A DNA stretch of 64,000 bases, from assembly GCA_001875255.1 (NCBI GenBank), contig MJAN01000004.1:3316-67315 (forward strand), given 5' to 3'. The stretch is from Candidatus Sabulitectum silens. Its GTDB lineage: Bacteria; Fermentibacterota; Fermentibacteria; Fermentibacterales; JCC-6. The notes under the pieces are model-generated. The model was not told where the DNA came from, ran no database searches, and worked only from the letters and a program-made list of their open reading frames with translations. Of the stretch, positions 52,205 to 64,000 are shown piece after piece (within the stretch, counting starts at the first letter, position 1; each line of letters begins with the position of its first letter). The position numbers were made by a program, and so were the translations under genes.

Positions 52205-55200
52205 CTATCTTCCACAGCAACGCTTGTATTTTTTGCCGCTGCCGCAGGGGCAGGGGTCGTTACGGCCGACCTTTTCCTCGGTGCGGACAACGGTCTGCTG
52301 CTTCCCCTCGGCGTTCCTGCCTGCCCCTGTCCTGTTGTCCCGGGCAGGGGGCATCGTTACGCCGGGGTGCACCGCCTGTCCGGCGGGACCCTGCTGCCTC
52401 TGTATTTTAGAGGCTGGCCATAATGATAGTATCTGCCTTACGGCCTGTTTGTCAATACCATCCAGTAGGTCCTCAAAGAGATTGAAGGCCTCCTTCTTGT
52501 ATTCAACCAGGGGATCCCGCTGGGCATAGGCCCTCAGGCCGATGCCGGACTTCAGGTGGTCCAGGGCGTATAGATGGTCACGCCACTTGCTGTCGATGGA
52601 GCTGAGGACCGACCACTTCTCGAGGTCGGTGAGCATCCGTTCACCAAGCTTCTCCCTCTTCTTGGAATAGTATTCCATGACCATGTCCACGATCCGGGAA
52701 CGGACCGCTTCGGGATCCCTTGAGAAATCCTCAATTCCCTGGAGCCTGAACATCATTCCAGAGAGGTCCCTGAGTATCACCTCGGCGGCGTCGGGGTTCC
52801 ATTCATGGGGTTCGGTGCCGTCGGGGAAGGCTTCCCTCACGGAGTGATCCGCCACGGCTTTGATCATCTCCTCCACCTCATCGGAAAGCCCCTCGCCGGT
52901 CAGGGCCTGGAGCCTTCTGCCGTATATGACCTCCCGCTGGCGGTTGGCCACGTCGTCGTATTCCAGAAGGTGCTTCCTGATCCCGAAGTGATACTGCTCC
53001 ACCCTTTTCTGGGCCTGCTCAATGGATTTCGTCAGCAGGGGATGCTCAATTGGTGCCCCCTCTTTCTCCTGGCTCTTCTTCAGGAAATCAATGATCTTCT
53101 CGCTGGCGAAGAGCCTGAAGAGGTCGTCTTCCAGGGAGAGATAGAAACGGCTTCCGCCTGGGTCCCCCTGCCTTCCGCTGCGGCCCCTGAGCTGCCGGTC
53201 TATCCGCCTGGATTCATGCCGCTCGGTGCCTATGACGAAGAGACCGCCGTCGATCTTTTCCCCCTCGGGGGTGGTGAGCTGCTTCACCTCCGGGGCCAGC
53301 TTGATGTCGGTGCCCCTTCCCGCCATGTTGGTGGCTATGGTAACGGCGCCCTTTCCACCGGCCCTGGCTATTATCTCCGCCTCCTGCTGGTGGTGTTTCG
53401 CGTTCAGCACACTATGAACTATCTTCCTGCGCTTGAGAAGCTTGGAAAGCAGCTCGGAAACCTCCACGGAAACGGTGCCCACCAGAATGGGCTGACCCAT
53501 GGAATGCCTGTAGGCTATCTCGTCTATTATGGCCGCGTACTTTTCCCTCTTGGAGGCGTAAACCCTGTCGTTGTGATCAACCCTGGCCACCGGTCTGTTG
53601 GTGGGAGCCACCGCCACGCTTATCTCGTAGATGCTTCCGAATTCCTCTTCCTCGGTTTCCGCGGTACCGGTCATGCCGGCGAGTTTTTCGTACATTCTGA
53701 AGTAGTTCTGGATGGTTATGGTTGCCAGCGTCTGGGTCTCACTTCTTATTTCAACGTTCTCCTTGGCCTCCAGGCCTCATGGAGGCCGTCGGAGAACCTT
53801 CTGCCGGGCATTGGTCTTCCGGTGAACTGGTCTACTATCACCACCCTGCCCTGGTCCAGCACATACTCCACATCCTTCTCGTAGAGCTGGTAGGCCTTCA
53901 GAAGCTGGTCGATGTTGTGAAGGGCCTCGGCCCTGCTGGTCTGGTTCTCGTATATCTGCTTTCGAAGTTCGAACTTCTCCGCCTCGGGAAGTTCCTTAGC
54001 CTCGAGTTCCGCCATCTCGTCGCCTATGTCACGAAGCAGGAAGAAGTCGGGATCCTCCGGGGAAAGCATTTTTCGGCCCATGTCCGATACGGAAACGGAT
54101 TTTCCCTCTCGTCGATGGCGAAATAGAGCCCTCGTCAAGTTCATGGATGTTCTTCTCCCGGAGCCTCTCCCCCTCGACCCTTTTCACCGCCGCGGCTATG
54201 TCCGGGTCCCGCAGGGCCTTTGTGAGCCTTCGATGCTTCGGGGCGCCCGCCTGGCCTTCAGGTACATCGTTGCGGCACCGTGGGTGTCGCCCTTTTCCCA
54301 CAGCTCGTTGGCGTCGGCCACTATGGTGTTCAGCAGTTCCGACTGCTTCCGCACGAGCCTGGCCACGGTGGACCGGTATTCCAGGTACTGGTTCCTGTTC
54401 CTGGCAACCGGGCCGCTGATTATGAGGGGGGTCCTTGCCTCGTCGATGAGAACGCTGTCGACCTCGTCCACGATTGCGTAGTGGTAACCCCGCTGGACCC
54501 TCTGCTCAAGCCTTACCGCCATGTTGTCCCGGAGGTAGTCGAAACCGAATTCGCTGTTGGTGCCGTAGGTTATGTCGCAGTTGTACTGCTCACGCCTCTG
54601 GTCCGGGGTCATTCCTCCCTGTATGCAGCCAACGGTGAGGCCCAGATACTGGTAGATGGGACCCATCCAGAGGGAGTCCCGGAGGGCAAGGTAGTCGTTC
54701 ACGGTGACAAGATGGGTGCCCCTGCCAACGGGAATACCCTCAAGGGGCTGAAAGACCCAGCCGTCGTAGTCCTCCCCGAACTCCGCCGAGGCAAGTTCCA
54801 CCCATTCAGGATTGAGGCGCAGGGCGTTGAGATACATGGGAAGCACGGCCACAAGGGTTTTCCCCTCACCGGTGGCCATTTCTGTTATCATGCCCCGGTG
54901 GAGGGTGATGGCGCCCTTCAGCTGAACATCGTAGGGGACCATGTTCCACACCTCGGACCTGCCGGTAACGTTCCATTCCCTGCCCAGGTTCCTCCGGCAG
55001 GCCTCCTTCACCACGGCGAAGGCCTCAACCATGATGTCGTCCACGGTTTCCCCCCGGAGCAGCCTTATCCTGAAGTTCTGAGTTCTGCTCTTCAGTTCCT
55101 CTTCAGAGAGTGACTCAAGTAGGGAGAACTCTTCGTTTATCTCCTGGACGAAGGGCTCCAGGCTCTTCATAAGTTTTGCCTGGCTGTCGCCGAGTATCAT

Positions 55201-55227
55201 TTTAACGAATTTACCAAACTTGCCCAT
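52205..55227 (-). CDS. secA: Preprotein translocase SecA (frameshifts near 54245, 54125 and 53775)
   Basis: [93 protein letters not shown]. Confidence 0.97.
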
Positions 55228-55532
55228 CAGGGAAAATCCTCCATGCATATTTCTGCGGCGGCATAACCGCCCAGGAGGGCCCCGGCCATGTCAGCCAGGA
55301 GATCGGAGGCCTGAAAACCCCCTCCCCTCCACTGGTCGTACAGTTCCTTCAAAAACCCCAGGCCTGCGGTGACTCCGGCGGATTCCAGGGGCCTGGATGT
55401 GGCCGCGGTGCCCAGGGAGGCAGCCGAGGCGGAGAAAGCAAAATGGTTCCACCCGTCGGATTGCATCACAGCGCCGCACCCGGAGAGGAACATAACGAAT
55501 AAAACCGGCGCAACGCACAGGGAAAACCTCAA
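55227..55532 (-). CDS. YfiM-like small membrane lipoprotein
   Basis: Lipobox LSGC; D..NHF..SA, G..KE.YD....GF...DL.AD.AG. Confidence 0.7.
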
Positions 55533-56440
55533 AACGGCTCTCCGAATCCGCTTGAGACCGAAGTGAACTCATTCATAAGGTCAAGGAGTGAATCGGCCCT
55601 CAGGGCCCAGGAGCTGTCTTCGTTCCATACCGAGGAGGCCTCGATGAGATAGGGAATAGCAAGGGACATTCTGTTCTCCCTGACAAGATCACGACCCCTG
55701 AAGTAAAGCATCCAGCCGAGATCCGCCCCGGTTGAGGGTGTCATTCGCAGGGAGTAGGCATTCCTGGAGGCATCCAGGGCAAGATCGTGGTTCTCCAGGG
55801 CAAGGTATACGGATGCGGCGGTCTGCCAGTAATGGAAGTCTTCCTCCCCCATCGCTGAGAGTTCCTGGAAATGAAGCAGGGCCTCTTCGGTCATCCCCTC
55901 CTCCAGGAGCCTGTCCACCAGTATGCTTCTGTAGAACCCCTCACCGGGCGTCAGTTCAACCGCCCGGGAAATGTAGGGAAGGCCCTTTTCCGGAAAAGTA
56001 TGGAAAGCCAGCACCCGGCATCGGCAGCAACAGCCGAATCACTGTTTTCATAGCTTTCAAGGAGCCACATAACAGACGGTCCCCGGGGTTGGCCCAGCTC
56101 CAGTTCCGCCCTGGCGAGCCGGTATCTGCAAACACCGCCCCCGGCCACCAGCGGCGAGTAGCCGATAACCTCGGAGGGCCTTGAGGCCAGTGCCTTCAGA
56201 AGCTCGGCCAGACAGTTCTCGTTGCCGGGGTCGAGTTCCAGGGCGGCAATGGCATAGGATTCCGCTAAATCGGGCATATGTAGCTGGTTGAAACACCAGG
56301 CCGCCCGGTAGAGGGGAAACCAGTCGAGGGGCCTGGACCGGGAACGCCGGACATAATGATCAAGGGCGGCGGTTACATCGCCGCTGTCAAGGGGCGACCC
56401 GCCGGTGGAAAGGAACAGTAGCAGAAGCAGAAGAGCCGTC
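55529..56440 (-). CDS. TPR-containing exported protein (frameshifted)
   Basis: TPR-like fragments 55529..56014 and 55951..56277 plus a hydrophobic signal-like stretch near 56410-56440; start unclear. Confidence 0.55.
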
Positions 56441-56838
56441 TAGAGGCCTCCCAGGTTAAGGTTCTCCTCGGGGAGGACCCCCCTGTAAACGATGGAGAAC
56501 ACCGTTCTGTCCGATGGCCTCCAGTCGAGCTGGAAACCGCCCAGAACATTGCCGAAATCGTTTCCGTCGCTGGAGAAGGTCATCAGACGGGAGTAACCCA
56601 TCTCAACCGTGGCGTCGAGCTTCGGGTGCAGGGCGAAGCGCATGCTTCCCAGGTATGTTCCACGGCCGTAGGAGCCGTACCTGCCCGAGGAATAGGAGAA
56701 GCTGGCCCGGCTGCTGAACTCCGGCTGAAAACCGGACCCGCCCCCCGGGAACCCCACGAGGTTGAAGCCCGAGGGGTCAAGACCGAAGGCCATGGCACCG
56801 GCTGACACAACGAGCAGAAGCATAATAACAGTTCTCAT
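56440..56838 (-). CDS. Secreted beta-rich hypothetical protein
   Basis: Signal peptide MRTVIMLLLVVSAGAMA; RBS GGAGG; alternating beta-strand pattern ending in LDWRPS. Confidence 0.7.
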   Translation of the reverse strand: MRTVIMLLLVVSAGAMAFGLDPSGFNLVGFPGGGSGFQPEFSSRASFSYSSGRYGSYGRGTYLGSMRFALHPKLDATVEMGYSRLMTFSSDGNDFGNVLGGFQLDWRPSDRTVFSIVYRGVLPEENLNLGGL

Positions 56839-56891: not shown

Positions 56892-57176
56892 ATGTTCCAG
56901 CAGAAAACAATGAAGGGCGTTTATGACAGAACTGCAGTACGCAGAGGGCGTGGTTTCAGAAGGGAGCCCGCCGGGGGAATACTTTTCAATGTAGACACCG
57001 GCGACCTCCAGGTGGCCGAGGGTGTTGCCTTCGGCATCTGCGACATGATAGACCACGGAGCCGAAAGGGATGACATTCTGACGGAGCTCAAGAAAAATTA
57101 CCCCGATCAGGACAATATAGAGCAGGACCTTGACCATTTCCTGGATGAACTCCGAAGCCGGGGAGCCCTGGCTTGA
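56892..57176 (+). CDS. PqqD-family RiPP recognition element (ScmD-like)
   Basis: FRRE..GGILFN.DTG......GVA..I...ID......I...L...Y.......DL..FL.EL...G. Confidence 0.85.
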   Translation: MFQQKTMKGVYDRTAVRRGRGFRREPAGGILFNVDTGDLQVAEGVAFGICDMIDHGAERDDILTELKKNYPDQDNIEQDLDHFLDELRSRGALA

Positions 57177-58224
57177 GTGAAGCACCCTACTGGGTCTCCC
57201 CCAGGGAGGCGAACCTGCTCATCACAGGTGGCTGCAACCTGAATTGCCGACACTGCTCTGTGCTAAGCTTCGGTGCCCTGAAGAAAGACCTTTCCCTGAA
57301 GAAATGGGCTGGCATTCTTGACGATCTGGCAGGGAACAAGCTGCTAAAACTCACCATCACTGGGGGCGAGCCCATGGCCAGACCGGACTTCCTCGAGTTC
57401 ATGGAAGAGGTTGCCCGAAGACCATTCAGGTACTCGGTGAACACCAACGGAACACTTGTCACCGGAGCGGTGATCAAAAGCCTCAGGAAGCACTCCGGAA
57501 GGCTGGACGACATAATGGTGAGCCTCGACGGCCCCGACAGGGGAACGATGGACAGCCAGCGGGGGAAAGGGGTATTCGACAGAATGGTCCTTGGAGTGAC
57601 GAAGATAAGGGAAGCCGGTCTTCCCTTCGGTTTTTACTGCACGGTGACCACGCTGAACATAGACAGGCTGGAGGAGACAGCCGAGCTGGCAACCACCCTT
57701 GGTGCAAACTGGATTAAGTTCAACCACTTTCTTCTGGCCGGCCCGGGGCTTGGCCTGGAGATTGTTCCCGGAGCAACAGAGATCACTGGTGCAGGGAAGA
57801 GATTAAAAAAATGTCAGAGTCAGATCCCGGCTTCATACAGGGCTCCATGGTGGAAACCGCCAGTTTCATAGAAACCATAAGGAAAAGGGGCGTTTCAACC
57901 GGGAACAACTCCGCTTTCCATTGCGGAGGGGGTTCACATAAGATAACGGTTTTCCCCGACGGAACCGTTACTCCATGCGACCACCTGCCGGATTACTCAC
58001 TGGGTAACATCCTGGAAAGGCCCCTCATCGATATCCTTCATGGTGAAGAGATGAAAAGGTTCACCGCTTTCGTGAACCAGCCCAAATCCAGCTACCGGGA
58101 ATGCAGGGACTGCGATCTCGCGGGGTTCTGCACCGGCGGCTGCCCGGTGGAGGCCCTTCTTTGGGGCAACAGGCTGAACCCCCACAGGATATCCTGCCTG
58201 AAACCCTGGATGGAAAACCCATGA
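57173..58224 (+). CDS. Radical SAM/SPASM maturase 1 (ScmE-like); frameshift at the A7 run 57805-57811
   Basis: ITGGCNLNCRHC, TGGEP..RPDF, NTNGTL, VSLDG, D..RG.G.F; SPASM C-GG...PDG.V.PC...C..C.....C.GGCP. Confidence 0.88.
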
Positions 58225-59253
58225 CAGAAAAGCCACCCCTGAAGGTCCTCTACATCAACCCCGCCGGGGCTGCAACCTCCACTGCAGCCACTGCTGGGTT
58301 AACGAGGGAACATTCGCCGGAAAACTCCTCACCGTTGATCAGTGGACCGAGCTGCTCAGGCAGGCGGTATTGCTGGGCTGCTCCTACCTGAAGCTCACCG
58401 GCGGAGAGCCCTTGCTCTACCATGGCTTCGTGGAGCTTTACGAAGGGGCTTCGGCAATAATTCCCGATGTTTCCGTGGAAACCAACGGAACACTTGAACC
58501 GGATGGTCTCTGGAGGGCATTTGCCGCGAATCCGCCCCACAATGTATCCATAAGCCTGGACAGCGCCAGCGAGGCAGTACACGATGAGTTCAGAGGCGTG
58601 CCAGGCTCATACAGAAAAACCCTGGCCTCGGGAAAAAGCTCGTGGCCGCCGGGATCCCCGCACAGGTAATCATGTCCATCTCTTCAACCAATCGTGGTCA
58701 GATCATTGGCATGATAGATCTCCTGGAGAAGATCGGCCTGAGGAACCTGAAACTTAACCTCATCACTCCCTCTGGCAGAGGAAAGGTTCTGAGCTTCCTG
58801 AAGGATAATGGTATCAAGGAGATAATGGATTTCCTCGAATGGGCCTTCAATGAGACACCGCCCTGGGTTCTGCCCACGGCTCCCCATGCCCTGACTCCTG
58901 TGAACAGGCTGGTTCAGCAGAGCAGCTGCCCGGTCCTTAACCTCATGGGAGTTCTTCCCGACGGCACCTATTCACTGTGCGGTGTGGCCTTCTCCCGGGG
59001 TGAAATGGCCTGGGGGAAATTCCCTGAAATGACCGTGGGCGAAGCCTGGGAAAACTCCCCTGTGTACAGAAGCATAAGGACCCGGATACCTGACAAGCTG
59101 GAGGGGGTGTGCGGCGATTGCATACACAGGGCGGGGTGCAGGGGAAGCTGCGTTGCCAACAACCTTGTTGCCGGCGGTTCTGTCAGCAGCCCCAACCCCC
59201 TGTGCCAGCTTGCCCTTGACAACGGCCTCTTCCCGAAGACCAGGCTCAGATGA
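58221..59253 (+). CDS. Radical SAM/SPASM maturase 2 (ScmF-like); frameshifts near 58267 and 58635
   Basis: Reconstructed PLKVLYINPAGGCNLHCSHCW, KLTGGEPLL, VSVETNG, SLD, HD.FRG, C....GVL.DG.YSLCG, LEGVCG.C.....C.GSCVA.N...C......FP..RL. Confidence 0.88.
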
Positions 59254-59780
59254 GTTCCCCGGAACGGAGCCTTCTGAGGGCTCTTTGCAGGGCAGTGATC
59301 CCTTCCGGAGCGGTACTGCACTCGTCCTGCGTGGAAAAGAACTCACAGGCATCATTGTTCCTGGGCAGGAGCGGCGGCGGAAAATCCACCATTGCCCACC
59401 TGGTTGCCGACGGCGGGGAGATATTCCTTCTGGAGGACGACGAAACCGTTGTTGCCCGGGGAACCGACGGCACGGTTCGGTGCCTCCCCACCCACAGGAT
59501 AAGGAGGCTCACCGGGGTGGAGCGTATTCCACCCGGTGTTCTCAAGAACCTCTTCTTCGTTGAGAAGGGAAGTGACACCCTGGTTCTTCCCGTTCCCTCA
59601 AAGTACGCCTTTTACAGGGCTGTCAGGATCGGTTCCTTCCTCGGAGCTCAGCTCCTCGATCCGAATGAGAATCATGCCCTTCTCAAGGGTATCCAGTCGA
59701 TCCTCGGCGGGTTTCCCTGCTTTATCGTCAGGTATTCGCCCCCTGTGAACCCCCATGATGTCATTGGAGATATGCTTTGA
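59250..59780 (+). CDS. HPr-kinase-like P-loop protein (ScmC-like)
   Basis: VLHSSCVE......LF.GRSGGGKST...LEDD, L..LFF.EK. Confidence 0.75.
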   Translation: MSSPERSLLRALCRAVIPSGAVLHSSCVEKNSQASLFLGRSGGGKSTIAHLVADGGEIFLLEDDETVVARGTDGTVRCLPTHRIRRLTGVERIPPGVLKNLFFVEKGSDTLVLPVPSKYAFYRAVRIGSFLGAQLLDPNENHALLKGIQSILGGFPCFIVRYSPPVNPHDVIGDML

Positions 59781-60180
59781 GCAGAAAGGGCGAACTTGGC
59801 TGGGTGAGGGGCATTTCCATGTGGCCCAACCTCCTTCCCGGCGACATTCTCAGGGCGGAACCCGTCCCCGCCGGGGACATTCGCCCGGGGATGGTGGTGG
59901 TGTTCCCTGGAAACCGGGCCGGCGGAGGGCCCTTCGTTCACAGGGTTCTCAGTGTGCGAATACTGGGGACAGGGCCTTCATAGCAACCGGCGGTGACCAA
60001 TCCGGAAGGGACGACTTCGTATCAGTATGCGAAAGCCGTCTGGAACTGAAAAGGATCACAGGTGTTCTCATTGCGGGACGGTACAGGAAGGTGGGAAACC
60101 TGAAAGTACCTCAAATGTTGCAAGGCAGGGTCAGGCTTATAAAAATCCACATCAGGATTGCCCGGAAACTTCTTTGGTAG
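59777..60180 (+). CDS. S24/S26 signal-peptidase-like protein (frameshift near 59967)
   Basis: VRGISMWPNLLPGD..., GMVVVF, FVHRV, T.GD...DD. Confidence 0.75.
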
Positions 60181-60207
60181 TATTGTTAAGGGATGAAGGG
60201 AGCGCAT

Positions 60208-60451
60208 ATGGTCTTTTTCCAGATAGATATTCAAAACCCCGCTTCTCTCCATAATAGAAGCCGGATCAACAGGCTGGGGTGCGACCTGCGATGTTGGCAA
60301 TTCTCCCCTCGGAGGAGGTTCCACGTGCAGCACCGGCAATAGAGCGGGATCCTCCGTTCAACCCGGGAAAACAGGCATTTTCAATAGCGGTTCCGAAGAC
60401 CCTGCAAGCAGCAGGCTTATAAACCCCGGGGATGTAAGCCGGGGTCTCTAG
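60208..60451 (+). CDS. Putative RiPP precursor peptide (ScmA-like) with CxxGN repeats; needs two single-base corrections
   Basis: RBS AAGGGAG then ATG at 60208. YSKP is in one frame, and the open frame 60227-60451 reads LLSIIEAGSTGWGATCDVGNSPLGGGSTCSTGNRAGSS... Confidence 0.65.
60423..60445. terminator. Hairpin between convergent genes (possible bidirectional terminator)
   Basis: ACCCCGG-N9-CCGGGGT. Confidence 0.4.
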
Positions 60452-61380
60452 GAATCCTTAGCGGCTCCGGGCTTTCCCAGGGCCGCAAGGGCGATAACAC
60501 CCAGAAGAACGCTGAACCACAGCGTGGCGAAACGCATCAGCAGTGTTGTTACCGTTGCCGCCGCCCCGGGCAGGTAATCCCCCAGTATTCCATCTATGGT
60601 CAGTTCAGTGAGGCCCAGGCCTCCGGGTATCATGGATACCGCCCCGGCCACGCTTCCCGCAGCGTGGGAAAGCAGGGAAATACCCGGGGGAAGACCGTAT
60701 CCCATTGAGGCGGCAACGGCGCTTAGCACCATGGCCTCTATTCCCCATGAGAGCATTCCCAGGGGAATGGACACCGCCATGCTTTTTCCGTTCAGAAGGA
60801 TTACCGCAGCCTCCCTGAAACCCTCGAAGGAATCGTTCCTCCGGGCCATGAAGGGGATCTTTTTCACCAGCTTCTCAAAGAGGCTCCAGGCCCTCCTGTC
60901 AAGCAGTATGAACATTGCAACGGCAACGAACACAACCCCGGCGGCGGAGGCGGGGATGCCCAGGGAGCTGCCTGTGAGAAGGGACCCCAGAAGTGCCAGA
61001 AGGACCATGCTGATAAGGTCCGTGAGTCTTTCGGCAACCACCACCGGGCTGGTCCTTTCCACCGGGATGTTCCGTCGTTTCTTCAATATGCCGCACTTGA
61101 GCAGCTCCCCCATCTTTCCAGGGGAAACCGTCATGGAGAACCCGGCTATGAAAACCAGCAGGCTCTCTCCGAAGGGTACCTTCGCGGTTATCCTGTGAAG
61201 GAAGTAGTGCCATTTCAGGAACCTGAGGAAGTAGTTCGCCAGGGGGAGAACGAGGAACAGGGGTATCCAGCCGGGATGGATTGAGCCGGCGGCCCCCATC
61301 ACCCGGCTGAGGTCGGAATGGAGGACAAGCAGTGTATAAAGGGCTATGGCCGCGATGAGGGCCCAGAGGGCTTTCTTCAT
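60448..61380 (-). CDS. Lysylphosphatidylglycerol synthase TM / UPF0104 flippase-like membrane protein
   Basis: NY.LRF.KW, SPGK.GE, ERL.D, PGGLG.TE, R.ATLW; real start MKKALW at 61380. Confidence 0.85.
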   Translation of the reverse strand: MKKALWALIAAIALYTLLVLHSDLSRVMGAAGSIHPGWIPLFLVLPLANYFLRFLKWHYFLHRITAKVPFGESLLVFIAGFSMTVSPGKMGELLKCGILKKRRNIPVERTSPVVVAERLTDLISMVLLALLGSLLTGSSLGIPASAAGVVFVAVAMFILLDRRAWSLFEKLVKKIPFMARRNDSFEGFREAAVILLNGKSMAVSIPLGMLSWGIEAMVLSAVAASMGYGLPPGISLLSHAAGSVAGAVSMIPGGLGLTELTIDGILGDYLPGAAATVTTLLMRFATLWFSVLLGVIALAALGKPGAAKDS

Positions 61381-62180
61381 TACTCGCCCGGGTCCGGCCC
61401 TTCCCCCGAAAGTACCAGAAGCTCCTCCTGAAGCTTCTTCGTTCCGGGCTGGGAGTCCAGTATCTTCAGGGCCTTTGCCGCAAGCCTTTTTGCCTCCCGG
61501 GGATCGTTCAGCTTCATGGAGCATCTTGCGGCCAGGCCAAAGGCCTGTGCCCTGCCCATTTTCGTTATGGGGCTGTCGGGAAGGAGTTCCGCAGAGGTTA
61601 TGGCGTGCATCCTGGCCCTGGAGTAGTCATCCTTCTTCATGTGAAGCATGGCCATGTTGAGATACACTCCGCTCTTTCCGGCGCCGTCCCTTTGCTCCAG
61701 GGCTTCTTCAAGGAGTTTCTCCGCCTCGTCCAGCCTCTCGTCAGCGTTTATCAGAAGTCCCGCCAGGTTCACCTTCATGGTCCCGGCCAGCTTCTCGTCG
61801 GTTTCTATGGCCCGGCGGTAGAACTTTTCCGCGTCGGCGTGGTCGCCCCTCTGCTGGGCTATGTAGGCCATCTGGGCCATGGCGGTCCCGCTGCCGTCGC
61901 CGGCACCCATTGCCTCCACCACCACCTTTTCCGCCCTGTCGGCGTCACCGCTCCTTATGAAATAGAAAACCAGGGCATTGGTAAGGGGGCAGGAGACCCT
62001 TTTTCTGTCTCTGTTGGCCTCGAGGTAGGCTATCATCTCGTCAACCTTCCCCGCCGCCGCCATTTCGGAGGCCTTCTTCAGCTGCTTCTGCTTCCATACG
62101 GGCGACTTTATCAGCCGGTATCCCAGAAAGACCGCCGCCGCGAGGAAAACCCCGGCTATGAGGAAAAGAAAGTTCTCCAT
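61380..62180 (-). CDS. Membrane-anchored TPR protein
   Basis: N-terminal TM ([20 protein letters not shown]) then TPR repeats; RBS GGAGG. Confidence 0.75.
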
Positions 62181-62181
62181 G

Positions 62182-64000
62182 TCAGATCCCTCCTCCACCG
62201 AAGTTCCTGTCGAATCGGAAAACTCTCCCAGTGTGGTGTCCGCGGAAAAACCGGTGCTGTCGGTGTGCAGCATGCAGGTTTCCGTGGGCGCCGTCCCCTT
62301 CCAGAAGTATTCTTCCCTGGAAAGCTCCGCGCATGCGCGTTGGCAAGCTGCCCTGTGATCCCGCAGATAATAGCCTGTTCCAGCTCGTCGGGCTCAGGAC
62401 CTGGGAATGTGGGAGCGGTGGACCGGTCGGCATCGGCGAATACCCTGCGCATGAAGCTGTTCCAGATGGGGAGCCCTATGCTGCTTCCCGACTGCCCACG
62501 GCCGTTCTTCAGCCGCATCCTGATTATGTGGTTGTCGTAGCCAACCCAGACCGATGCCACGAGGTCCGGGGTGAACCCAACGAACCAGGCGTCGGCGTAG
62601 TCGCTTGTGGTGCCTGTTTTGCCCCCGGCCTCCCTGCCGGCGTAGGGGCCTCCCCAGTACCATCCGCGCCGGCACCGGTACCAGACCTCAGTACCGACTG
62701 GAGCATGCTGTTCATCAGAAAGGCTCCGGTAACGCTGAGGACCCTCCTGCCCGGGTCCGGCCGTTCGTTGCTCTCCAGAAGATTTCCCATGCGGTCCTCA
62801 ACCCTGAGAATGGCCGTTGTGTTCATGGCGAGCCGCCTGTGGCGAATGGAATGTATGCCCTTGCCATCTCCAGGGGGTTGGCGTAGCAGCTGCCCAGGGG
62901 CAGGGAGTTCACTATGGGAAGCCTTGAGGTAATGCCCATGGAAACCGCCCTGGCGGCTCCGGTCTCTATTCCAACGGCATCCCCCAGTCTTACCGCGCTC
63001 ACATTGTATGACCGTGCCAGGGCTTCACGGAGGGTAACCATGCCATGGAACTGAAGGTCGTAGTTCCTGGGGCGCCAGGTGCCCGGGTTAAGGTCTACCA
63101 CCACCGGCTGATCCAGAATGACACTTCCCGGGGACCAGCCCTGTTCTATGGCCTCGGCGTAGTAGAAGGGCTTGAATGAACTGCCGGGCTGCCTTCTGGC
63201 CTGGGTTGCCCTGTTGAACTCGCTGTCCTGGAAATCCCTTCCCCCGACCATCGCCCGTATGTAGCCTGTGGTGGGATCCACGGCCACCAGGCTCCCTGAA
63301 TGTAGTCCGGAGCCCCTGAGGTGGTGTCCTTCACCGCCTGCCAGTGTTCCCATGAGCTGTTGTAACGAAGCCGGTCGGTGCTTTCGCTCCAGGTACCGGT
63401 TTCAGGGTCCCAGACCGGTTCCTTGGAGGTTAGAACGCTGTCTATGGCCATTCTGGCGTGCTCCTGCATTTCCGGGTCCAGTGTGGTGTGCACCACGAGA
63501 CCCTGCTCGTACACCGCTGACCAGCCATATCGGCCCACGAGATATTGCCTTACATACTCGGTGAAATAATCCCAGTCCTGCTCCAGTTCATAACGGTGGA
63601 CCTCCACCGCCAGGGGCAGCGAGGAAGCCTCCTGCCTCTGTTCCGGTGAAATGACGCCGTGATCGGCCATCATGGATAGGGCTATGTTGCGCTGGGCCAG
63701 GCACCTGTCAGGATTCCTGAGGGGATTGAAACCGCTGGGGTTCTTTACCATTCTAACCAGTACCGCCGACTGGGCAAGGGTGAGTTCCGCGGCGGAAATG
63801 CCCCCGAAGTATGTGCGGGCGGCGGCTTCTATTCCATGGGCTCCGGACCCGTAGTAGATCTGGTTCAGGTACATCTCCAGTATCTCATCCTTGCTGAACT
63901 GCCGCTCGATCTCCATGGCGATGAAGGCCTCCTGGAGCTTCCTCTGGAAGGTCTGGTCCTGAACCAGGAAAAGCCCCCGGGAAAGCTGCTGGGTAATGGT
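62182..64000 (-). CDS. Class A penicillin-binding protein 1A (5' end beyond window; several frameshifts)
   Basis: [24 protein letters not shown]...[34 protein letters not shown]. Confidence 0.92.

Follow-up and report, generated by a model that had tools for sequence, protein, structure and literature searches.

The closest described relative of the gene considered here is found in the SynChlorMet (SCM) cassette, which apparently exists as database models only. NCBIfam contains models for a PqqD-related protein (TIGR04248), ScmC (TIGR04249), ScmE (TIGR04250), ScmF (TIGR04251) and ScmA (TIGR04252; 49 positions, with a cut-off of 35 bits). No paper on the SCM/SynChlorMet cassette was found in the literature; the supplements of genome-mining papers on RiPPs (peptides made by the ribosome and then modified after translation) lay outside the search and may list it. 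In lasso peptides, according to PMC10368454, YxxPxL is a conserved leader motif occupying positions -17 to -12, and the system described there also includes a kinase. The window analyzed here is the whole of a 64,000-nucleotide stretch from Candidatus Sabulitectum silens (contig MJAN01000004.1, positions 3,316 to 67,315), taken from an assembly of 2.92 Mb in 95 contigs that is 71% complete (GCA_001875255.1, here G000). Its segment 60208-60451 is probably a genuine RiPP precursor gene of about 81 residues, related to ScmA and hidden by two missing letters. This kind of cassette is already known in the form of models, yet is uncharacterized, and the present precursor family is a divergent variant of it.

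A probable precursor gene divided among three reading frames

Direct reading places an AAGGGAG ribosome-binding site 6 nt ahead of the ATG at 60208, and the homologues have sites of the GGAGG or AAAGGA type at the same distance from their starts. The assembly splits the gene that follows: the frame of the ATG (60208-60218) contributes M-V-F-F, a middle frame continuing to 60240 contributes L-F-P-D-R-Y-S-K-P-R-F, and a third frame, in which the cysteines are found (the Cys frame), takes over from 60241. Starting at 60227, the Cys frame has no stop before the TAG at 60449-60451. It contains two T-C-x-x-G-N units at 60284-60340, with Cys codons (60287-60289 and 60326-60328) that are 13 residues apart. 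It has no ATG, GTG or TTG, so no open reading frame (ORF) is reported there in the ORF listing. The ORF that starts from the ATG itself, 60208..60342, encodes 44 aa (49 aa from an ATG at 60193) and has neither the leader nor the Cys features. An earlier note, written from the letters of the window, had described much of this: the ribosome-binding site it named is present, the positions it gave for the ATG, a run of five T (T5), an A4/C4 run (AAAACCCC, occupying 60233-60240) and the TCxxGN units are those read here, the ORF is indeed missing from the listing for want of a start codon in the Cys frame, and the uncorrected 44-aa peptide does lack the features concerned.

Genomes of the same genus have intact orthologues of the neighboring radical S-adenosylmethionine (SAM) gene, with 50-62% identity, and 14 such sister loci were examined by tblastn with the three frames of the window. 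The Cys frame matched syntenic places in five of the 14 loci (5 matches, E 1e-10 to 9e-15, two in L023). One more match, in L026, lies at a place that is not syntenic (E 2e-4). For the two remaining frames, the 14 loci contained no match. Agreement of this degree goes well past what chance could give. A tblastn search of related genomes had been proposed in the earlier note. The intact homologues are ORFs of 63-86 aa with the N-terminus M-x-F-F-P-x-x-Y-x-K-P-x-L. A profile built from six of them aligned to the Cys frame over positions 8-85 (E 6.9e-20) and to the middle frame over positions 3-13, including the FPxxYxKP stretch. Together, the profile and the homologue alignments indicate that the N-terminus of the family is spread over three frames in the window, and the two-frameshift reconstruction put forward earlier yields the very N-terminus of the intact homologues.

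The family is widespread in the phylum. Of the 70 phylum genomes covered by a profile search, 38 have the peptide, as have 15 of 18 genomes of the genus (the order-level and phylum-level searches covered the identical 70 genomes), and the gene in the window is the sole match in the source assembly. Among 1.84 billion representative proteins, 46 clusters were matched at E <=1e-3 and 25 at E <=1e-10, nearly all of them 61-88 aa long. The close homologues are without a matching model in Pfam and NCBIfam, and one member bears the NCBI name ‘hypothetical protein’. The invariant pattern of the family is FP..Y..P.L...GW.A.C..G...C..G, the lettered residues of which (F, P, Y, P, L, G, W, A, C, G, C, G) do not vary in 33 of 33 aligned peptides; the YxxPxL leader motif that had been recognized in the window is part of it. 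The number of cysteines varies among 68 distinct peptides (two in 33, three in 30, four in 4 and six in 1), and their spacing is mostly 12-13 residues. Gly is found at position +3 of both cysteines in 66 of the 68, and position +6 is Pro or Ala for the first Cys (65 peptides) and Ala, Pro or Val for the second (57 peptides). The TCxxGN units noticed earlier are therefore a family motif as far as C-x-x-G with P/A at +6 is concerned, whereas their T and N are not conserved. The core is variable and rich in Gly, Ser, Thr and Pro (22% Gly, 14% Ser). The C-terminus of most members is a tail resembling R-L-x-N-P-x-D-V-x-x-G-L, that of the window being identical to the tail of the homologue in genome G010, and the penultimate Gly is found in at least 90% of the 33 peptides. 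Being conserved, this C-terminal tail is under constraint, and it may be the follower that the earlier note had suggested.

Two further observations concern the family. Five loci (L035, L055, L059, L061 and L063) have two precursor genes in tandem with differing cores, and six stretches of a 1674-aa protein (P0031) are matched by the peptide profile (E 3.7e-10); this protein may be a low-complexity Cys/Gly repeat protein.

Other candidates in the same segment were set aside. The ORFs at 60022-60339 on the minus strand and at 60027-60254, 60208-60342 and 60279-60422 on the plus strand have no family matches, and two of them (60027-60254 and 60208-60342) had no matches in the 14 sister loci. Loss of a third Cys from the window copy by a further frameshift was also rejected: there is no Cys in the other frames at this place, and 33 of the 68 peptides have two cysteines. 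A scan of 59700-60800 for promoters and terminators detected no terminator and one weak promoter-like site, located within the peptidase gene. An inverted repeat in the last codons (60423-60446) was considered as a terminator and dismissed, as its folding is no better than that of shuffled sequences (z -1.6).

The two breaks were studied in contigs of four sequencing runs. Runs X1 and X2 are bioreactor metagenomes; X3, a freshwater-sediment run of another study, contains a relative with 90-95% identity; X5 provides an RNA-library contig and comes from the same study as X1 and X2, the RNA runs of which are listed as ION_TORRENT. An extra T behind 60213 is found in contigs of all four runs, including the run of the other study and the RNA run (X1 13.1/13.1, X2 28.8/63.2, X3 3/3, X5 3.72/3.72). 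This added base in the T5 run is the one that had been proposed. Stretches that no contig of X3 or X5 covers do not count as evidence here. An extra G behind 60240, which changes CCCC-G into CCCC-GG, is found in one X2 contig (a 59-letter variant with a depth of 28); the X3 contig stops at 60240. The T and the G together restore one open frame with Arg as the joint codon, and one sister peptide likewise has K-P-R-L-L at the joint. The second correction of the earlier note was right in that an extra letter is present in this X2 variant, but the letter is a G behind 60240 rather than an A or C, lies one base away from the place proposed, and gives Arg rather than Pro.

The same 4.8 kb contains at least seven other differences of this kind, six of them extra letters and one an omission. 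Relative to the window, the contigs have single-letter insertions at 56953, 57804, 58265, 58627 and 59964, and an omission at 61368; six of the seven insertions (56953, 57804, 58265, 59964, 60213 and 60240) lengthen a run of the same letter. These indels coincide exactly with the splits of the PqqD-like, ScmE-like, ScmF-like and peptidase genes, and the orthologous enzymes are intact in sister genomes. The Ion Torrent platform under-calls homopolymer runs. The breaks are most likely assembly errors, with typical homopolymer under-calling. Within the 4.8 kb, the RNA-library contig is confined to 60201-60363, which hints at an abundant precursor transcript. In the X3 relative, one contig matches the window up to 60240 and another from 60412, where the conserved tail starts; the 217 letters of the second contig upstream of 60412 do not fit the window at 90% likeness. 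A mismatch over 60241-60411 is as expected for a divergent core. Farther away on the minus strand, a SecA-like gene (53746-55248) and a penicillin-binding-protein-like gene (62156-64000) consist of ORF pieces in differing frames, and their translations suggest that these splits are probably due to the same kind of indel error.

The neighboring cassette and its relation to ScmA

Five cassette genes, all on the plus strand, lie upstream of the peptide gene (Table 1), which starts 27 nt past the peptidase gene and is transcribed in the same direction as the genes for the PqqD-like protein and both radical SAM enzymes.

Table 1. Features of the peptide gene and its surroundings, in window coordinates.
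Feature	Position	Strand	Basis
PqqD-like protein with a RiPP recognition element (RRE)	56892..57176	+	PF05402, E 1.2e-7
ScmE-like radical SAM/SPASM enzyme	57173..58224	+	TIGR04250 is the best match of both pieces
ScmF-like radical SAM/SPASM enzyme	58221..59253	+	TIGR04251 is the best match
ScmC-like P-loop protein, HprK/PEPCK-type fold	59250..59780	+	TIGR04249, E 4e-6; TIGR04352, E 2e-4
Sec11/SipW-type (S26) peptidase-like protein	59777..60180	+	TIGR02228, E 1.5e-5
Ribosome-binding site AAGGGAG	60195..60201	+	direct reading; homologue sites at equal distance
Precursor peptide gene, about 81 codons and TAG	60208..60451	+	profile, tblastn, contig letters
Break 1: T5 run, one T longer in contigs	60214..60218	+	contig comparison
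Leader F-P-x-x-Y-x-K-P-x-L ... G-W-x-A, up to the first Cys	60217..60283	+	invariant residues
Break 2: extra G after CCCC in one contig variant	60240..60241	+	contig comparison
Core with two C-x-x-G units	60287..60340	+	direct reading and family alignment
C-terminal tail R-L-I-N-P-G-D-V-S-R-G-L	60413..60448	+	same as tail of the G010 homologue
Flippase-like membrane protein (LPG_synthase_TM), convergent	60448..61524	-	PF03706, E 5.8e-43

Most of these genes are disturbed by missing letters. The N-terminus of the PqqD-like protein is affected by a missing T at 56953 (an extra T is seen in X1, X2 and X3); its orthologues share an 84-aa core with a mean column identity of 83%. The ScmE-like gene is split at an A7 run near 57804, where contigs have an extra A or AA, the ScmF-like gene near 58265 and 58627, with an extra G and an extra T in the contigs, and the peptidase gene near 59964, with an extra G in X1, X2 and X3. 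The split pieces in the window score 105+47 bits with the ScmE model and 46+139 bits with the ScmF model. ScmE and ScmF, the best full-length matches, are the nearest families of the two enzymes, but not equivalogs. The CxxxCxxC motif and seven SPASM cysteines (including C-x2-C-x5-C-x3-C) are invariant in 13 ScmF orthologues. Among solved structures, both radical SAM enzymes are closest to SkfB, followed by PqqE, SuiB, CteB, BlsE and anSME, and the second-tier matches of the enzymes include WgkB, PqqE, MftC, SbtM, AhbD and NirJ. The P-loop protein contains the Walker A motif G-x-S-G-G-G-K-S-T and weakly matches TIGR04249 and the HprK-related kinase A model. A profile comparison with HprK gives E 0.015, and a structural model of the protein (predicted local distance difference test, 90.7) leads by Foldseek to PEPCK and HprK/P (E 4e-6 to 1e-5). 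A profile of 17 peptidase orthologues matches SEC11C/A at E 1e-11, with alignment of the S-M-x-P, V-H-R and G-D motifs.

On the far side of the cassette, a 132-aa protein (56440-56838, minus strand) has no family match and a start that resembles a signal peptide. It adjoins the cassette in 10 of 14 sister loci (65-74% identity), either upstream and divergent or downstream. Further ScmF-like radical SAM/SPASM matches are found elsewhere in the source assembly (C1:222530-223120, C12:1594-4322 and C21:15587-16523; E 3e-20 to 1e-10), and may be other peptide-maturase systems.

Gene order was compared in 30 loci around peptide matches, two of which were too short to tell. In 21 of the 30, ScmF, ScmC and the peptidase come immediately before the peptide gene, and the flippase-like gene is convergent and beside the peptide gene in 23, an adjacency that could reflect functional linkage or mere synteny. 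The peptide was found in 31 of the 32 genomes with an ScmF orthologue of at least 300 bits and in seven of the 38 others; this threshold was set after the tables had been seen, and related genomes are not independent. A predicted complex of the PqqD-like protein with the peptide, made with alignments, scored 0.27 and 0.26 relative to a mark of 0.32, and speaks neither for nor against binding. The gene has the genomic features of a RiPP precursor that would be served by a PqqD-type RRE: it is small, lies in an operon with RRE and maturase genes, and encodes a conserved leader and a variable core.

The relation to ScmA is seen in other phyla. Close relatives are found in Candidatus Sabulitectum, Fermentibacteraceae, Fermentibacteria and Aegiribacteria, and those with 33-37% identity in Syntrophales, Desulfomonilaceae, Omnitrophota, Verrucomicrobiota, Chloroflexota and others. 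Four of five scanned records of the distant ScmF proteins score 508-605 bits, above the cut-off of 400, and the fifth, from Fermentibacteria, scores 349. At 20 of 62 distant ScmF loci, a small ORF matches the peptide family profile at E <0.01, and the peptides concerned have a K-Y-E-K/P-P-x-L leader and, behind it, numerous C-x-x-G-x-x-A units. Up to about ten C-x-x-G repeats are present in the peptides that adjoin bona fide ScmF genes (L091-L153; Syntrophales, Omnitrophota, Verrucomicrobiota and others). Only three of 18 such peptides touch the ScmA model (20.8-29.5 bits) and none reaches 35 bits; the curated ScmA model is too narrow and under-detects its own family. ScmA is nonetheless the only NCBIfam model touched by several members of the present family, 4 of 43 representatives reaching it weakly, with up to 19.9 bits versus the cut-off of 35. 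The ‘ScmA-type CxxG repeats’ suspected from the window alone are borne out by these like leaders and repeats beside bona fide ScmF genes, and by the cross-matching profile. By the curated cut-offs, the peptide (<35 bits) and the enzymes (<400 bits) formally fall outside ScmA; in a wider sense, which is our own grouping and not a curated one, the peptide is ScmA-like, as it combines Y-x-K/P-P-x-L, C-x-x-G and the ScmE/ScmF pair. The findings support a RiPP precursor that is ScmA-like, though divergent, and belongs to an SCM-like cassette.

Alternative readings and proposed maturation

Several observations weigh against this assignment or against the reconstruction of the gene. The evidence on the breaks comes from contigs, not raw reads, and X1, X2 and X5 share one study, which is possibly the window’s own source. 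The second break is the weak point, with the support of one contig variant of one run and of the family alignment; correction of the T without the G would leave a frame of 15 codons before a stop. A 58-letter X2 contig (depth 9.57), the X1 contig (0/13.1) and the RNA-library contig X5 (0/3.72) do not have the extra G, and the last of these may be DNA carry-over. The window copy has just two cysteines, as in 33 of 68 peptides, and 30 have three. The ScmA model finds no match in the frames of the window even at E 10, none in the six-frame translation of the source assembly and none among six close homologues, and even the intact G010 orthologues of the enzymes score 154 bits (ScmE) and 247 bits (ScmF) versus the cut-off of 400. 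In seven of the 30 loci, the flippase-like gene is the only one of these neighbors, with no cassette gene within 1.5 kb. Binding, modification and cleavage, finally, have to be deduced from the gene and its family and from the folds of the proteins encoded beside it in the operon.

The missing G, and the divergence of the X2 contigs into several variants exactly at 60190-60270, could also mean that the gene is truly broken here, as a recent pseudogene or in a strain mixture with a frameshifted allele. This seems quite unlikely, given that the downstream frame retains all the invariant residues of the family and has the very tail found in a sister genome, that the G-bearing variant is the deeper one in X2 (28 vs 9.57), that contigs show at least six further insertions relative to the same assembly in neighboring genes, five of them at short runs, and that the RNA runs of the study were made on a platform known for under-calling them. 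A frame that is open merely by chance, in the spacer separating two convergent genes, would explain why the assembly as it stands offers no start codon and why no promoter-like or terminator-like site stands out, but the strength of the profile match, the presence of the family in more than half of the phylum genomes (38 of 70) and the synteny conserved across loci make the likelihood of this practically nil. It has also to be asked whether the product is a real small protein that is not a substrate of the cassette but a partner of the flippase-like protein, for instance as an envelope or lipid-linked factor. The frequent adjacency of the two genes, including the seven loci without a nearby cassette gene, would fit, as would a differently built Fermentibacteria cassette (L101) that is also near a flippase-like gene and the 132-aa neighbor. 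Such a role is very unlikely, however: the leader and the CxxG repeats are common to peptides beside ScmE/ScmF in other phyla, where the flippase-like gene was detected at one of 62 loci, the peptide co-occurs with close ScmF orthologues (31 of 32 genomes), five of the seven detached loci have near-identical peptides and maybe represent one rearrangement, and a distance of just about 1.6 kb separates the peptide gene of G007 from the PqqD gene.

For the reading of the gene as an intact precursor of the cassette, maturation can be proposed as follows. The YxxPxL leader would be bound by the PqqD-like RRE of the cassette, which would present the core to the ScmE-like and ScmF-like radical SAM/SPASM enzymes, each of them most likely acting at one C-x-x-G site. 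The HprK-fold P-loop protein may phosphorylate the peptide or otherwise activate it with ATP, and the Sec11/SipW-type peptidase would trim the leader, the tail or both. Thioether cross-links of the cysteines are the best guess for the modification, with somewhat less than an even chance. Other radical chemistry is a possibility of lower standing, and includes C-C or C-O cross-links with Trp or Tyr, Cys heterocycles, and a peptide-derived cofactor or metal binder. The second-tier enzyme matches listed above are in keeping with it, two of the solved relatives (PqqE and SuiB) form C-C bonds, Trp and Tyr are invariant in the peptide, and conservation across the phylum resembles that of a cofactor system more than that of a sporadic antibiotic. 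Against this, the Tyr lies within the YxxPxL motif and the Trp precedes the first Cys, in a portion common to it and the leader, C-x-x-G is the only repeated and invariant feature of the core, and among solved structures both enzymes are closest to the thioether-forming SkfB. A more specific proposal, which we regard as rather doubtful, is that the product is a lineage-wide and vertically kept one of the Fermentibacterota type (a cofactor, metal binder or envelope factor, rather than a sporadic antibiotic-type RiPP), made by an uncharacterized radical SAM pair at C-x-x-G sites with ATP-dependent tailoring by the HprK-fold protein, and perhaps tied to the flippase-like protein.

With the peptide recognized, the enzyme pair of a SynChlorMet-type cassette gains a likely substrate family. 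Peptides with two or three target sites and many natural variants should be easier to study by mass spectrometry than the ten-repeat ScmA peptides. The locus also illustrates how small genes of a metagenome-assembled genome can be concealed, and all the enzymes of an operon broken up, when homopolymers are called too short. An apparently decayed cassette can then be an intact one.

Comparison with described systems

The YxxPxL motif is shared with the leaders of lasso peptides with a B1 (PqqD-type) RRE (PMC10368454). The locus further resembles these systems, and those of phosphorylated lasso peptides with their HprK-type kinases, in that one operon contains a PqqD-like RRE standing alone and a P-loop protein of the HprK fold. 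The maturases here are, by contrast, radical SAM/SPASM enzymes, and the peptide ends in Gly-Leu rather than Ser. Neither an asparagine-synthetase-like lasso cyclase nor a B2 leader protease turned up in the 14 ORFs at 55.5-62.3 kb of the window that were compared with Pfam or in the 12 compared with NCBIfam, and a lasso peptide precursor was rejected on the grounds that neither family occurs among the cassette ORFs.

The sactipeptides and ranthipeptides (SkfA/SkfB, SCIFF/CteB and freyrasin/PapB) resemble this system in having cysteines in a repeated short motif and enzymes with the full seven-Cys SPASM pattern, whose best match among solved structures is SkfB, with CteB matched as well. They differ in that the scores with their maturase models are low here (PapB, 74.5 vs 340 bits; AlbA, 65 vs 850 bits) and in that two maturases are available for two Cys sites. 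With the pathways of pyrroloquinoline quinone (PQQ; PqqA/D/E) and mycofactocin (MftA/B/C), the locus shares a small precursor, a PqqD-type chaperone, a SPASM enzyme (MftC and PqqE being second-tier matches) and vertical maintenance within a lineage. In contrast to these, the core is variable and Gly/Ser-rich, it has no conserved C-terminal Val-Tyr or Glu...Tyr pair, and the scores remain below the cut-offs (98.5 vs 265 and 89 vs 381).

The SCM cassette comes closest, as it consists of the same parts: a PqqD-like protein, two radical SAM/SPASM enzymes (E, then F), a ScmC-like P-loop protein and a small Cys peptide. The ScmA peptides have a Y-x-K/P-P-x-L leader and C-x-x-G-x-x-A/P units about 10-13 residues apart, as has the family described here, which differs from them in having mostly two or three Cys units instead of up to about ten, and in the addition of an F-P start, an invariant G-W and the R-L-x-N-P-x-D-V-x-x-G-L tail. 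At the level of the cassette, the PqqD-like protein of the window does not match TIGR04248, the precursor gene comes last, behind a Sec11-type peptidase, and the cassette is kept across a whole phylum.

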